Below, one piece after another: positions 317-4,794 of a DNA stretch of 4,860 nt (within the stretch, counting starts at the first letter, position 1; every line of letters starts with the position of its first letter). The DNA is taken from IMG/VR virus record IMGVR_UViG_2690316267_000015; one strand, 5' to 3'. The notes under the pieces are model-generated. The model was not told where the DNA came from. It was given only the letters and a program-made list of their open reading frames with translations, and made no database searches. This DNA comes from a virus. Its lineage: Duplodnaviria; Heunggongvirae; Uroviricota; Caudoviricetes. A program made the position numbers and the translations under genes.

Positions 317-907
317 ATGTCTCGAATTTTTGCTTACTGTCGGATATCAACGCTGGATCAGACCACCGAAAATCAACGCCGGGAAATCGAAAGTGCAGGT
401 TTTAAAATCAAACCTCAGCAAATAATCGAAGAACACATTAGCGGCTCAGCAGCAACCAGTGAGCGTCCTGGTTTTAACCGGTTGCTTGCTCGCCTGAAAT
501 GTGGTGATCAATTGATTGTGACAAAACTGGATCGCCTTGGTTGTAATGCAATGGATATCAGGAAAACAGTGGAACAACTGACCGAAACAGGTATCAGAGT
601 GCATTGCTTAGCATTGGGGGGCATTGACCTGACCAGTCCAACAGGAAAAATGATGATGCACGTAATTTCAGCAGTCGCTGAATTTGAACGAGACCTTTTA
701 CTTGAACGCACTCATTCCGGGATAGTAAGAGCCCGCGGCGCAGGGAAACGTTTTGGTCGACCACCTGTGTTAAATGAAGAACAGAAACAGGTGGTATTCG
801 AACGAATTAAGTCAGGTGTAAGTATAAGTGCCATTGCCCGGGAATTCAAAACCTCGCGGCAAACCATTTTAAGAGCCAAAGCAAAACTTCAGACACCTGA
901 CATATAA
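317..907 (+). CDS. pinQ: Serine-recombinase DNA invertase, Pin/Hin/Gin/Cin family (196 aa)
   Basis: The 196-aa ORF begins [15 protein letters not shown], with the catalytic serine in the conserved R-I-S-T-x-D-Q motif. It has a resolvase-type catalytic domain and a C-terminal helix-turn-helix ([17 protein letters not shown]). I recognise it as the PinQ/PinR type of E. coli cryptic prophages. The symbol pinQ rather than pinR is chosen from the neighbouring genes. Confidence 0.95.
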
Positions 908-1004: not shown

Positions 1005-1580
1005 CTACGGCAGTGCTGGCCATTCAATATCCGGTGCAGTTGATGTATCAACACGGTTCAGCAACACCCGATACTTTTTCCAGGCTTCCAGCAACAAGGT
1101 TTCTTCCTCCGTTGCGATCTCCAGATCCACAGCATCCTGAAGCGGCGCTATATGCTCACTGGCTATCTGCATCAGGCTGTTTTTTGTTTCTTCCGCCTCC
1201 CGGATCCGGAACAGTTTTTCTGCTTCCGTATCCTTCACCCAGGCTGTGCCGTTCCACTTCTGATATTCCCCTCCCGGCGATAACCAGGTAACATTTTCCG
1301 GTAACGGACCGAGTTCAGAAATAAATAACGCGTCGCCGGAAGCCACGTCATAAACCGTTTTACCCCGATGATCTTCAACGAGATGCCACGATGCCTCATC
1401 ACTGTTGAAAACAGCCACGAAGCCTGCCGGAATATCTGGCGGTGCAATATCGGTACTGTTTGCTGGCAGACCTGTATGAGGCGGAATATATGCGTCACCT
1501 TCACCAATAAATTCATTAGTTCCGGCCAGCAGATTATAAATTTTTATGGTCCGTGCTTGTTCACTCATTCTGAATGCCAT
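1005..1580 (-). CDS. tfaQ: Tail fibre assembly protein (191 aa)
   Basis: The 191-aa ORF ([24 protein letters not shown]...) is recognised as the lambdoid Tfa family. GAGG lies about 9 nt upstream of the ATG. The start overlaps the stop of the upstream stf fragment as TAATG (1578-1582), a classic stf-tfa translational coupling. Confidence 0.92.
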
Positions 1581-1888
1581 TATGCAAGCCTCACAATATA
1601 GTTAAATGCGATGTTTTTGACGGTGTTTTCCGCGTTACCAGCAGCGTTAACGGTGATGGTATGTCCATGTGAACCAATCGCAACGGAGTGCGTATGAGCA
1701 CCAATACCGACAGTATGTGCGTGTGCACCTGCGCTTGCAGCAGTACCCGATACAGAGTGCGTATGAGCGCCTGCAGAAGAAGTGTTAACACTGTATTTAG
1801 AATAATCAGGTGATCCACTTCCCGGAGCACCACTGGAACCACCTGAAACAAATGTCATCGAATGGGTATGTGCACCGGCTGTCCCCAT
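1580..1888 (-). pseudogene. stfQ: Side tail fibre protein, C-terminal fragment only (102 codons from an internal ATG)
   Basis: The translation contains five GAHTHS-like His-box repeats ([35 protein letters not shown]) and ends ...[26 protein letters not shown], typical of lambdoid Stf and T4 gp37-like fibre tips. Upstream of the ATG at 1888 this frame is out-of-frame J sequence, so the N-terminal about 90 percent of a normal Stf is absent. Confidence 0.8.
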
Positions 1889-3222
1889 GCATTTACCGCC
1901 CGGACTGTCAGCCTGTAATTTCCCAGCGCCAGCTGCGTGAAGCGATATGTGGTTTCCGTCGTCCGGGCCGTGCTGACCAACCGCTCACTGCCGTCGTCCG
2001 CTGCCACGGTCAGGCGAAGCATAAAGCTCACCCCCTTCACCACCTTCGGCGTGTCCCAGCGCGCCAGCACCTGGTATTCCCCGCTGTCTGCGGTGACTTC
2101 TGCGGTCAGGTGCTGAACTGCTGGCGGCGTGACACCATTCACCGTGCCGCTCTGGTCACCGTCAAAGTGCGCCCCGTTATCCACGATGGCTTCTTTCTCC
2201 GGTACATGCTGCACGGCAGTGATGGCATACGTACCGTCATCGTTCTCACGGATACTCACACAGCGGAACAGGCGCTGACGCAGCGTCGGCAGCTTCAGCC
2301 CCCACACGCTGTACTCGGCAACGCCGTCAGGAACCCGGCTCACTTTCACCTTCACGCCGTCGGTGACGGACTGGACCTCCACGCTCACCGGATTACCCTG
2401 CCCGTCAACCAGGCTTATCAGCGTGGTGCCGGAGGATGGCAGCGTGATTTCACGGTCGAGCGTCAGTGTCCGCGTCTGGCTGTTCACCGCCAGCACGCGC
2501 CCGCCGATGCTGATCCCCGCATAGTCATCATCACAGATTTCAATGACATCACCTGGTACATGGCGAAGCCCTTCGGCACCCACGCTGAAGTCCACGGTCT
2601 GCGTTTCCAGCAGTTCCGTTTTAATCAGCCACAGCCCGGCTCGGTGCGCCTGCCCCCGCCTGGTACAGCCAAAGGCATCCATCTTCGTGACGTTACGACC
2701 GTAACGGGCAATGGCCTGCGTGTCCTCCACAAGCTCTGTCGCCGTCTCCCAGCCGTTATCCGGGTCAATCCAGTTCACCTCAACGGCATTATGGCGGTCC
2801 TTCAGGGCGCTGAAGCTGTAGCGGAACGGCGCGCCATCATCCGGCATCACCACATTACTGCGGTTATAGGTCCACACCTTATCTGATGGTCGGTCCTGCA
2901 CGAACGTCAGCGTCTGCCCGTTCCATACCGGCATACAGCGCATCGCCGAGCAGAAATCACTGAGAACATCCCACGCCTTACGCTGTGTGGTCAGCCAGGC
3001 ATTACAGGTGATGCGCGGCTCCGTGCCGCCAAAACCGTCCGGCACCGACTGGTCGCAACACTGGCCGATGACATACAGCGCCCATTTATCCACATCTGCC
3101 GCACCAAGACGTTTACCCATGCCGTAGCGCGGGTGGCTGGAGATCTGTCTCGCTGGCCTGCCGCAGTTCTTCAACTTCCCGGCGCAGCTTTTCGTTCTCA
3201 ATTTCAGCATCCCTTTCGGCAT
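1855..3222 (-). pseudogene. Lambda J-like host specificity (central tail fibre) protein, internal fragment
   Basis: From roughly 3141 down to 1879 the translation (...YGMGKRLGAADVDKWALYVIGQCCDQ...GQTLTFVQDRPSDKVWTYNRSNVVMPDDGAPFRYSFSALKDRHNAVEVNWIDPDNGWETATELVEDTQAIARYGRNVTKMDAFGC...RAVNAWGQ) matches the middle third of lambda gpJ as I recall it. The ATG at 3222 lies inside Nu1-derived DNA and has no convincing Shine-Dalgarno sequence. The J C-terminal receptor-binding region and N-terminal region are missing. Confidence 0.8.
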
Positions 3223-3370
3223 ACCATTTTATGACGGCGGCAGAATCATAAAGCACCTCATTACCCTTGCCACCGCCTCGCAGAACGGGCATTCCCTGTT
3301 CCTGCCAGTTCTGAATGGTACGGATACTCGCACCGAAAATGTCAGCCAGCTGCTTTTTGTTGACTTCCAT
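3113..3370 (-). pseudogene. nohQ: Terminase small subunit Nu1 homolog, N-terminal DNA-binding fragment (Nu1 residues about 1-79, then out-of-frame tail)
   Basis: MEVNKKQLADIFGASIRTIQNWQEQGMPVLRGGGKGNEVLYDSAAVIKWYAERDAEIENEKLRREVEELRQASE is near-identical to the lambda gpNu1 N-terminus as I recall it. Homology stops near 3134; the remaining 6 codons (PALRHG) are not Nu1. The ATG sits about 189 bp from cosN, as in lambda. Confidence 0.85.
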
Positions 3371-3390: not shown

Positions 3391-3595
3391 ACAGAGAAAG
3401 GAAACGACAAAGGCCAAAAAGCCCGCTTTCAGCACCTGTCGTTTCCTTTCTTTTCAGGGGGTATTTTAAATAAAAACATTAAGTTACGACGAAGAAGAAC
3501 GGAAACACCTTAAACCGGAAAATTTTCATAAATAGCGAAAACCCGCGAGGTCGCCGCCCCGTAACCTGTCGGATCACCGGAAAGGACCCGTAAAG
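3391..3595 (-). other. cos: Lambda-type cohesive end site (cos): cosB with R1, I1, R2, R3, then cosN, then the cosQ-side flank
   Basis: On the - strand the sequence reads GGGCGGCGACCTCGCGGGTTTTCGCTATTTATGAAAATTTTCCGGTTTAAGG..., which is the lambda left end as I recall it. R-site-like 16-mers lie at 3391-3406 (R1, - orientation), 3440-3455 (CGTTTCCTTTCTTTTC, R2, + orientation) and 3492-3507 (R3, - orientation, one mismatch to lambda). An AT-rich IHF-like stretch lies at 3461-3485. The right-end flank CGTAACCTGTCGGATCACCGGAAAGGACCCG (3560-3590) matches the lambda right end. Confidence 0.85.
3548..3559. other. cosN: cosN 12-nt cohesive-end sequence (AGGTCGCCGCCC on +, GGGCGGCGACCT on -)
   Basis: Exact match to the lambda 12-nt 5' overhang sequence, with lambda-identical flanks on both sides. 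Confidence 0.85.
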
Positions 3596-3758
3596 TGATA
3601 ATGATTATCATCTACATATCACAACGTGCGTGGAGGCCATCAAACCACGTCAAATAATCAATTATGACGCAGGTATCGTATTAATTGATCTGCATCAACT
3701 TAACGTAAAAACAACTTCAGACAATACAAATCAGCGACACTGAATACGGGGCAACCTC

Positions 3759-3992
3759 ATGTCTACGAAGAACAGAACCCGCAGAACAACAACCCGCAAC
3801 ATCCGCTTTCCTAACCAAATGATTGAACAAATTAACATCGCTCTTGAGCAAAAAGGGTCCGGGAATTTCTCAGCCTGGGTCATTGAAGCCTGCCGCCGGA
3901 GACTGTGCTCAGAAAAAAGAGTTTCTTCTGAAGCAAACAAAGAAAAGAGTGACATTACTGAATTGCTCAGAAAACAGGTCAGACCAGATTGA
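3759..3992 (+). CDS. ynfO: Small basic protein with predicted ribbon-helix-helix DNA-binding fold (77 aa), ynfO-like
   Basis: 77-aa ORF with GGGG 8 nt upstream of the ATG. It has a basic N-terminal arm (KNRTRRTTTRN), then RNIRFP (beta strand, compare Arc FNLRWP), NQMIEQINIALEQKG (helix A ending in Gly), SGNFS turn and AWVIEACRRRL (helix B). This is the Arc/Mnt/CopG pattern. A charged C-terminal tail of about 30 aa follows. Confidence 0.85.
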   Translation: MSTKNRTRRTTTRNIRFPNQMIEQINIALEQKGSGNFSAWVIEACRRRLCSEKRVSSEANKEKSDITELLRKQVRPD

Positions 3993-4049
3993 AGCAATTT
4001 AGATAATCGTGCAGACTACGCCCCCTCATATCACATGGAAGGTTTATCT

Positions 4050-4460
4050 ATGGATCAGGTAGTCATTTTTAAACAAATATTTGATAAAGTTCGAAACGAT
4101 TTAAACTATCAATGGTTTTATTCTGAGCTAAAACATCACAATGTCTCACATTACATTTACTATTTAGCCACAGAGAATGTTCATATTGTATTAAAAAATG
4201 ATAATACAGTGTTATTAAAGGGCCTAAAAAACATTGTGTCTGTCAAATTTTCAAAGGATAGGCATCTTATAGAAACGACCTCTAATAAGCTGAAATCCAG
4301 AGAGATCACATTTCAGGAATACAGAAGAAACCTTGCTAAAGCAGGAGTTTTTCGGTGGGTTACAAATATCCACGAACAAAAAAGATATTACTATACCTTT
4401 GATAATTCATTACTATTTACTGAAAGCATCCAGAAAACTACACAGATCTTACCACGCTAA
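4050..4460 (+). CDS. ydfO: ydfO/ybcV-family protein (DUF1398 as I recall), 136 aa; an alternative in-frame start at 4035 would give 141 aa
   Basis: The ORF track gives 4035..4460. The second ATG at 4050 has a better Shine-Dalgarno sequence (GGAAGG at 4037-4042, 7-nt spacer) and yields [14 protein letters not shown]..., matching the ydfO-type start I recall. The gene is very AT-rich, far below the J fragment in GC. Confidence 0.85.
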
Positions 4461-4468
4461 ACCATAAC

Positions 4469-4497
4469 GTCCGGCTTCTCTCACTCCTGAGCCGGAC
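4469..4497. terminator. Perfect 8-bp GC-rich hairpin (GTCCGGCT, 13-nt loop, AGCCGGAC) between convergent ydfO and the gns-like gene; candidate terminator
   Basis: The stem arms are exact reverse complements and the hairpin lies 9 nt after the ydfO stop. The T-tract after it on the + strand is weak (TGCATTGGTTT), so intrinsic terminator activity is uncertain. Confidence 0.45.
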
Positions 4498-4563
4498 TGC
4501 ATTGGTTTAATAAAAACCATCAACAATTGTGATTTAGATATTCGGAACCATTCAAATATAACA

Positions 4564-4585
4564 AAACCCCGTAAAAACGAGGTTT
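4564..4585 (-). terminator. Rho-independent terminator for the gns-like gene
   Basis: The - strand RNA reads AAACCUCG-UUUUUA-CGGGGUUU followed by UUUUGUUAUAUUU. That is an 8-bp stem with one G-U pair and a U-tract, about 25 nt downstream of the stop at 4612. The + strand version has a C-A mismatch, so it is asymmetric. Confidence 0.6.
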
Positions 4586-4611
4586 ATGGATAAATTTTAT
4601 TATTGAATACA

Positions 4612-4794
4612 TCAGATTAAATTAATCTTGACATCATAGCTTTCAAGACCCGTCATTTTTTCCCGTGCGGTAAACTGAATACTGGTAACTTCTTTCCCGG
4701 TCTTTTTCTTAAGTTCAATAATTTTTTTTGTTATATATTCAGAAATATCTGCTTCTGCTTTTGTTTTTAAGGAAGGTGCGAATAAGCAGGTCAT
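4612..4794 (-). CDS. gnsB: Gns-family protein (GnsA/GnsB-like), 60 aa from the ATG at 4794; the frame stays open upstream to the window edge
   Basis: The C-terminal two thirds (ISEYITKKIIELKKKTGKEVTSIQFTAREKMTGLESYDVKINLI) closely resemble GnsA/GnsB as I recall them (…KNTGKEVSEIRFTAREKMTGLESYDVKIKIM). GGGAAG lies just upstream of the ATG at 4794. The ORF-track version (4612..4860) begins at a GTG at the window edge, so the true start is uncertain. Confidence 0.75.
   Translation of the reverse strand: MTCLFAPSLKTKAEADISEYITKKIIELKKKTGKEVTSIQFTAREKMTGLESYDVKINLI

Follow-up and report, generated by a model that had tools for sequence, protein, structure and literature searches.

Do ynfO and ydfO, two small genes lying side by side next to the cohesive-end site (cos) of a lambdoid prophage, form a functional pair? 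The question is raised by a stretch of 4,860 nucleotides (nt) from the Caudoviricetes record IMGVR_UViG_2690316267_000015 of IMG/VR, analysed here at its full length and called the window below, which is the end of a Qin-type lambdoid prophage of Escherichia coli. The initial annotation of this DNA saw a conserved two-gene module, in which a small ribbon-helix-helix (RHH) protein is followed by a larger partner in the layout of a toxin-antitoxin pair. Our analysis suggests a different answer. Both genes are already known and named E. coli prophage genes, though uncharacterised, and they probably represent two separate modules, namely a solo-type RHH regulator expressed in the lysogen and an independent cargo cassette, rather than a toxin-antitoxin pair. 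The open reading frames (ORFs) with their coordinates, strands and lengths, the 57-nt spacer and the ribosome-binding site of ydfO are all as first described:

3759-3992, plus strand: ynfO, 77 amino acids (aa)
3759-3908, plus strand: ynfO N-terminal domain, aa 1-50 (DUF3950 core)
3909-3992, plus strand: ynfO C-terminal tail, aa 51-77, and stop codon
4037-4042, plus strand: ydfO ribosome-binding site GGAAGG, 7 nt before the ATG
4050-4460, plus strand: ydfO, 136 aa, DUF1398

YnfO matches the Pfam family DUF3950 (PF13132) with an E-value of 2.7e-21 (75.6 bits, cut-off 25) and the NCBIfam model YlcI_YnfO_N (NF041551) with 3.3e-9 (36.6 against a cut-off of 30). Its N-terminal domain reads, in order, as a basic arm, the IRFP strand, helix A, a G-S-G-N turn and the NFSAWVIEAC helix B. 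YdfO matches DUF1398 (PF07166) over positions 1-119 of the 119-position model (E-value 2.5e-46, 157 bits, cut-off 22). All of its 136 residues are covered, with two mismatches, by PDB entry 2HH8, a structural-genomics nuclear magnetic resonance (NMR) structure of a 149-residue tagged construct without assigned function. Neither family has an established function, as the initial annotation had stated.

Both are genuine genes and not chance ORFs. Polymorphism among 25 ynfO and 23 ydfO alleles points to purifying selection, the non-synonymous to synonymous ratio being 0.12 (p 3e-5) for the ynfO N-domain and 0.31 (p 5e-8) for ydfO. The ratio for the ynfO tail is 0.21 (p 0.02) and is based on nine changes only.

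Distribution of the two genes and the junctions between them

We surveyed 232 non-redundant viral loci of IMG/VR carrying DUF3950. Of the 90 loci with the 77-aa tail class, 88 have DUF1398 as the next gene, at +58. None of the ~140 viral loci with other tails, which represent at least ten further tail classes, has DUF1398, and nearly all have a convergent gene next, which leaves the ynfO-type gene solo. For example, the Shiga toxin (Stx)/YYZ-type phages have a solo 75-aa DUF3950 gene, and phage 434 has ylcI followed by a bor-like gene only. Across phage records DUF3950 is found in 153 and DUF1398 in 43, all of the latter lambda-like, and ~72% of the DUF3950 records have no DUF1398. The complete E. 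coli genomes encode the ynfO N-domain at 8,362 places in 3,785 genomes and ydfO-like genes at 3,875 places in 3,019 genomes. Outside Escherichia, DUF1398 lies within 4 kb of none of 39 DUF3950 loci, which include loci of Salmonella, Serratia, Klebsiella, Xenorhabdus, Pectobacterium and Tatumella. DUF1398 also occurs alone, in E. coli as ycgX beside bluR and in Salmonella as a solitary homologue near sopE2. The neighbourhood check hence reduces the proposed conserved module to a pairing in only one mosaic lineage of E. coli lambda-like phages.

The DUF3950 family is narrow, with 120 clusters at 50% identity among 1.84 billion representatives searched, and its range after removal of lambda-DNA contamination is Enterobacterales and Pasteurellaceae only. 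Homologues at 30-50% identity keep the basic arm, [KR]xIRFP, the helix, a short turn and NFSAWVxEAC. The C-terminal tails are hypervariable across the family and often have 5-15 residues. The charged tail of ~30 aa that the initial annotation had counted into the signature is present in the 77-aa allele, where it follows the pattern CSEKRVS[SP]EANKEKSDITELLRKQ[VI]RPD (90 loci), but it is a feature of this allele class and not of the family.

Lambda itself carries a 64-aa ORF of the YlcI/YnfO family at 48109-48303 on the complement strand. It is absent from the reference annotation (NC_001416.1), in which nothing is annotated between lambdap79 and the right end, and it is annotated in other lambda-like RefSeq records. 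The Pasteurella phage or satellite Pmp7 likewise has a clear, unannotated 59-aa DUF3950 ORF at 4853-5029 (plus strand). It is antisense inside a coding sequence of 224 aa labelled 'transcriptional repressor', which has no Pfam match and may be spurious.

Alignments locate the junctions on both sides of the ynfO core. The homology with the Stx/YYZ-2008-type phages begins at the ATG and ends with codon 47 (exactly 3759-3899). In these phages, 42 nt separate the gene from a divergently oriented HNH endonuclease gene, which belongs to an HK97-type HNH-TerS-TerL module. The upstream partner (Nu1 and cos, or HNH) and the tail class assort independently. This independent assortment and the limits of the Stx homology together indicate that the conserved unit is a 150-bp N-domain coding block between two recombination junctions. 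With lambda the identity is 98% over 3560-3921 and breaks at codon 54, where lambda has a 613-bp insertion carrying the antisense lambdap79; the homology resumes at 3976, at the palindrome AGGTCAGACC (GGTCAGACC), and continues through ydfO at 84%. The Qin-type tail is missing from lambda and DLP12, which nevertheless retain an intact DUF1398 gene of 79% identity.

Two further features delimit ydfO:

3972-3988: PdhR-box-like palindrome AACAGGTCAGACCAGAT, overlapping the last ynfO codons, a site from systematic evolution of ligands by exponential enrichment (SELEX) listed in PMC7660256
4469-4497, plus strand: hairpin between the convergent ydfO and gnsB-like genes

The PdhR-box palindrome coincides with the 5' boundary of the DUF1398 cassette common to lambda. 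Since the lambda homology resumes at this palindrome, the upstream DNA, the ribosome-binding site and the start codon all come with the cassette. A PdhR SELEX site has been reported inside ynfO-ydfO, and ybcV mRNA was down 10-fold in a pdhR deletion (PMC7660256). The ribosome-binding site is kept in lambda and ev099. The 136-aa frame starts at the second ATG, a choice supported by the upstream ATG being out of frame in lambda and by the 411 nt annotated in RefSeq. The gene is AT-rich, as first noted, with a GC content of 31% versus 47% for the window. The hairpin downstream has a dG of -21.9 kcal/mol (z -5.1, 0 of 200 shuffles) and is a possible candidate terminator, though no U-tract follows on the plus strand.

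With its atypical GC content, own ribosome-binding site, palindrome boundary, 3' hairpin and antisense position to Nu1 and the lysis genes, ydfO shows the marks of a moron, and it is an autonomous cargo cassette, acquired separately. Close parallels are the lambda morons of the bor/lom type. With them ydfO has in common a high AT content, an orientation antisense to the late operon and a place in the lysis-cos interval, with upstream DNA of its own and a hairpin, and the lambda DUF1398 gene stands in one leftward series with bor. Unlike Bor, YdfO has no predicted lipoprotein signal, as judged by eye from its sequence.

Some database entries for DUF1398 need care. The annotated 177-aa GTG start of lambdap78, the lambda DUF1398 gene, looks over-extended, the conserved start giving 136 aa. 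We see nothing that would support calling the protein a 'head protein' (PHROG 413, RefSeq) or a 'putative envelope protein'.

YnfO as a candidate regulator

The N-domain of YnfO probably has the RHH fold. We built an AlphaFold2 (AF2) model of a single chain on an alignment of the homologues at 30-50% identity. It has helix A at 19-32, the GSGN turn at 33-36, helix B from 37 and a disordered basic arm, and the mean predicted local distance difference test (pLDDT) is 70, with ~80 in the core. The IRFP segment at the N-terminus is modelled in an extended form, which is what a single chain of an obligate dimer should show. YnfO shows the secondary-structure order of RHH proteins, i.e. strand, helix A, Gly-containing turn and helix B, within ~45 residues. 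At least 45 of the top 50 Foldseek matches in the PDB are RHH proteins, among them Arc, CopG, NikR, ParD, the MazE9 N-domain, VapB, NikA, TacA, KacA, CdbA, PutA, AtaR and AmrZ, with a best E-value of 0.6. The named matches in the viral structure library BFVD are mostly RHH proteins too (best E-value 0.4). In hhalign, where an alignment of 108 core sequences was compared with single sequences entered by hand, Arc obtained P 0.042, with its NLRWP placed on IRFP, and the NikR N-domain P 0.036; five non-RHH controls obtained P of at least 0.29. What had been called a textbook RHH signature is therefore a plausible reading backed by the model and by the fold matches, none of which is statistically significant. 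With such a fold YnfO would most likely dimerise and bind DNA.

The closest analogy is with Arc and Mnt of phage P22, the RHH repressors of immI. They are small phage proteins with the same series of basic arm, beta-strand, helix A, Gly turn and helix B, and P22 mnt, like ynfO, lies inside the late region and antisense to it. The YnfO segment NIRFP..G..NFSAWV is in register with NLRWP..G..VNSEIY of Arc, which is also among the top fold matches, and the C-terminal helical extension predicted for the 77-aa allele resembles that of Mnt. Unlike the P22 proteins, with which it has no significant sequence or profile similarity, YnfO is a DNA-binding protein by prediction only, and its gene is not divergent from an antirepressor promoter, the nearby Ant, KilA-N and AntA genes being convergent. 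In Stx phages and satellites, a DUF3950 gene often has a gene of the antirepressor type (Ant, KilA-N, AntA, Rha) no more than 1-2 kb away (L168 4212-4781; L004 1254-1775; L400 9323-9820; L056 4569-5372), which recalls the Arc/Mnt-ant layout of P22, but again in convergent and not in divergent orientation. A direct repeat AACCCGCA, present twice within the ynfO coding region, was considered as an operator and rejected, as it is not conserved in the Stx-type allele.

Two host regulatory sites lie upstream of ynfO:

3596-3610: perfect 7-1-7 Fur-box palindrome TGATAATGATTATCA, 163 nt upstream of the ynfO ATG
3685-3698: perfect FNR consensus TTGATctgcATCAA, 74 nt upstream of the ynfO ATG

The Fur box was the only match in our search and was found in 0 of 200 shuffles. 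The offsets of -163 and -74 from the ATG are constant in lambda, 434, ev099, DLP12 and Qin, and both sites are absent from the Stx type. Binding of Fur has been reported by gel shift and in vivo selection under the site names 'nohA -233', which is the site in the window, and 'nohB -133' (PMC2189734). Binding of FNR has been reported by chromatin immunoprecipitation on microarrays (ChIP-chip) and electrophoretic mobility shift assay (EMSA) under 'nohA/ydfO' and 'nohB', and a nohA-directed lacZ fusion was weak and FNR-insensitive (PMC1802558). The FNR site and a -10-like GACAAT at 3720-3725 would fit a putative class II promoter directed toward ynfO, with a start at ~3732 and FNR near -41.5; a leftward-facing CATAAT is also present at 3666-3661. 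The expression of ybcV and ybcW rises ~3-fold under microaerobic conditions. Because in a phage the transcription of Nu1 starts at the late promoter and runs through cos, the leftward unit of ylcI, ybcV and bor is a natural alternative target for the two sites. They may thus serve the leftward ylcI/ynfO unit, which in lambda includes bor.

Our analysis suggests the following picture. The N-domain of YnfO would form an RHH dimer that binds DNA through its basic N-terminal arm and beta-ribbon and acts as a transcriptional regulator. The DUF3950 gene of lambdoid phages normally stands alone, in antisense to the late operon and immediately ahead of the packaging module (cos-Nu1 or HNH-TerS); that of satellites also stands alone and in antisense, with the integrase on one side and the primase operon on the other. 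The antisense placement suggests expression in the quiescent prophage, and in the lambda-cos-type phages the gene lies downstream of the host Fur and FNR sites. In the Qin/ev099 lineage, recombination has joined the ydfO cassette to the 3' end of ynfO and so created the 77-aa tail allele. Within this lineage a looser relation of repressor plus cargo is possible, and YnfO might then regulate ydfO.

Several points weigh against this picture. No single fold or profile match of YnfO is significant (the best is the Foldseek E-value given above), the structure is a monomer model of the stated mean pLDDT, and our sequence and profile searches against PDB sequences found no RHH protein. The Fur box is ~125 nt upstream of the inferred ynfO start, the literature assigns both the Fur and the FNR sites to nohA, and their orientation is ambiguous. 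The promoter scan found no consensus promoter at threshold. A solo autoregulator has no obvious purpose. Finally, the 77-aa tail perfectly co-segregates with ydfO and appears weakly constrained, as a specific interaction of YnfO and YdfO would predict.

The last point leads to the alternative that the two genes are a specific regulator-effector pair, in which the C-terminal helix of the Qin-type YnfO contacts YdfO as co-repressor, anti-repressor or partner and both are transcribed as a unit. The 88 of 90 loci speak for it, as DUF1398 never follows otherwise, and so do the ratio of the tail, the AF2 model, in which helix B continues through the 77-aa tail to residue 73 like the C-terminal helix of Mnt, and the lack of a terminator between the genes. 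We nevertheless consider it unlikely. The tail, the spacer and ydfO form one recombination block, so that co-segregation is expected anyway and needs no interaction. Lambda and DLP12 keep their DUF1398 gene despite the 613-bp insertion that replaces the tail and separates the genes. The selection statistic comes from those nine changes, and ydfO has its own upstream regulatory DNA. We therefore prefer two modules brought together by recombination.

Packaging, satellites and the toxin-antitoxin hypothesis

The initial annotation placed the genes correctly beside cos and in a moron position between the lysis genes and cos. Both are antisense to the late operon. The packaging elements of the window are:

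3113-3370, minus strand: N-terminal fragment of terminase Nu1 (first ~81 residues)
3548-3559: cosN cohesive-end 12-mer AGGTCGCCGCCC (reverse complement of the lambda left end), identified by sequence
~3583-3589: packaging-termination subsite cosQ, identified by position, the phage 434 cosQ annotation being mapped via alignment

cosN marks the end of the phage genome, the part of the window to its right being the phage right arm, and the lambda right-end homology begins at 3560.

This position raises the alternative that DUF3950 acts in DNA packaging or in conflict between helper and satellite, by binding near cos or the packaging genes or by pairing with TerS domains, and thereby sets or blocks packaging specificity, instead of working as an ordinary transcription factor. 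The lambdoid DUF3950 gene is always directly before a packaging module, be it of the Nu1 type or of the HNH/Terminase_2 type. Outside Escherichia the DUF3950 loci are mostly in satellites, and many of their neighbours are of the kinds that make up such elements (integrases, AlpA, P4/D5-type primases, AntA/Rha antirepressors). A 2026 survey reported YlcI/YnfO proteins in capsid-forming phage-inducible chromosomal islands (PICIs). Two genuine ORFs, P0208 and P0190, fuse DUF3950 to the N-terminal helix-turn-helix (HTH) of the small terminase family Terminase_2, and both are in integrase-primase satellites. The DUF3950-related ORFs of the satellite or prophage loci are:

Locus L400: 4590-4772, 5001-5363 and 8576-8776
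Locus L403: 4714-5103

The L400 satellite carries a second, solo DUF3950 gene. It adjoins the HNH-terS genes of a lambdoid prophage in which yet another DUF3950 gene neighbours HNH, a layout matching the published 'helper-embedded satellite' configuration. The fusions parallel Rpp of the PICIs, which likewise combines, encoded by a satellite, a TerS-like DNA-binding domain with a dimerising module. The likeness applies to the two chimeras only, and such a fused protein could be a packaging factor of the Rpp kind. Rpp consists of a winged HTH and a coiled coil and targets lambda Nu1, and YnfO has no TerS-like domain. Rpp proteins were also considered as relatives of DUF3950 and were rejected, since the winged-HTH family is unrelated. 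A viral scan with P0208 as query found nothing.

The fusions raise the possibility of a role in packaging specificity or phage-satellite conflict, but a general packaging function of DUF3950 seems improbable to us. The satellite gene adjoins the integrase, ~4 kb from the satellite terS; the lambda and Stx types share the coding block only and no flanking site; and the lysis-terminase interval is a general hot spot of morons. The minimal cos function of lambda is not known to need a ylcI/ynfO gene. A wider proposal can be made with little confidence. DUF3950 might be an unrecognised and widespread class of RHH factors, encoded solo and antisense beside the packaging module in lambda-like phages, lambda included, and in their satellites, wired to Fur and FNR in the lambda-type phages, and with a role in packaging specificity or in helper-satellite or prophage-prophage conflict.

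It is very unlikely that the two genes are a type II toxin-antitoxin or abortive-infection pair, with YnfO as RHH antitoxin and YdfO as toxin. The layout does resemble that of RHH antitoxins such as ParD, CcdA, RelB-like proteins and TacA/AtaR, in that an RHH-like N-domain with a tail is encoded upstream of a slightly larger partner on the same strand, the tail co-segregates with ydfO, and ParD, TacA, AtaR and MazE9 are among the fold matches of YnfO. Type II pairs are characterised by pairwise co-occurrence across families and by a conserved C-terminal region of the antitoxin. The families here are mostly apart (153 versus 43 phage records, none of the 39 non-Escherichia loci), so that the partner is not conserved and the pair is absent from most family members, and the tails are hypervariable and often very short. 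DUF1398 genes occur solitarily, as ycgX and in Salmonella, and lambda and DLP12 retain theirs without the Qin-type tail. PADLOC matched no defence model to YnfO or YdfO, the Pfam scan gave no toxin-family match for either, and YdfO has no known toxin fold. The 57-nt spacer, the separate ribosome-binding site and the upstream regulatory DNA of ydfO also speak against the pair, and the production of YdfO alone for NMR suggests that the protein is tolerated.

That the conserved 5' block of ynfO is a DNA-level recombination linker, its ORF without protein function, is hardly credible and already contradicted: mosaic junctions do flank the block on both sides, but its N-domain is under purifying selection and homologues at 30-50% identity keep the ORF and its motifs in other genera and contexts.

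The window, database records and significance

The remaining features of the window are:

317-907, plus strand: invertase pinQ
1005-1580, minus strand: tfaQ
1580-1888, minus strand: tail-fibre fragment
1855-3222, minus strand: J-type tail-tip fragment, 455 aa
4612-4860, minus strand: gnsB-like (GnsA/GnsB-family) ORF, convergent with ydfO

The block 3400-4620 is found by megablast at 99.8% identity in many E. coli chromosomes, in which RefSeq names ynfO and ydfO, and the whole block (at least 80% coverage) is present in 2,632 of 5,426 complete E. coli genomes and 19 phage records. The truncated Nu1 adjoins the J-type tail-tip fragment out of frame. This is a deletion joint through which the entire head and tail region has been lost, and it differs from the joint in the FORC 064 chromosome taken for comparison, where nohA is full length. 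The GnsA/GnsB-family ORF runs to the window edge, and the Pfam description of the family is 'toxin of a toxin-antitoxin system'. Compared with the 57-aa GnsB the ORF is extended at its N-terminus, and a near-identical genome annotates it as frameshifted.

We also met several misleading records. A 'natural DUF3950-DUF1398 fusion', P0235 (233 aa, 761 members), and P0122 are gene-calling artefacts, as the DNA has a TGA that was read as Trp. The P0235 cluster arises from short contigs; ynfO and ydfO are in the same frame in this allele and not in ev099. Matches to DUF3950 and DUF1398 in Staphylococcus, Bacillus, Streptomyces, a spider and others were rejected as contamination with lambda control DNA, so that the apparent taxonomic range of the two families is false. 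Lambda control DNA is present in more than 30 species-representative genomes, with Streptomyces, Cohnella, Flavobacterium, Staphylococcus and Synechocystis among the contaminated hosts, and in several non-enteric 'plasmids' of ~3.5 kb or 48.5 kb. A statement that YdfO overexpression raises oxidative-stress resistance is a mis-citation of YfdO (PMC4077768 versus PMC3105296) and was not used. Wang et al. (2010) studied YfdK, YfdO and YfdS of prophage CPS-53, and ydfO does not occur in their paper. In a second paper ydfO is a misprint for yfdO.

These results remove a tempting but unsupported toxin-antitoxin annotation. They also flag database errors, namely misleading DUF1398 labels, fusion proteins that do not exist and a wrong taxonomic distribution. 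A ynfO-type gene sits unannotated in the reference lambda genome, near Fur and FNR sites that have been credited to the packaging pseudogenes nohA and nohB. If these sites are re-assigned to the leftward ylcI-(ybcV)-bor unit, the serum-resistance cassette of lambda would respond to iron and oxygen. And if the reading of two separate modules is true, a gene that is present in ~70% of complete E. coli genomes, often in multiple copies, would be a small RHH regulator.

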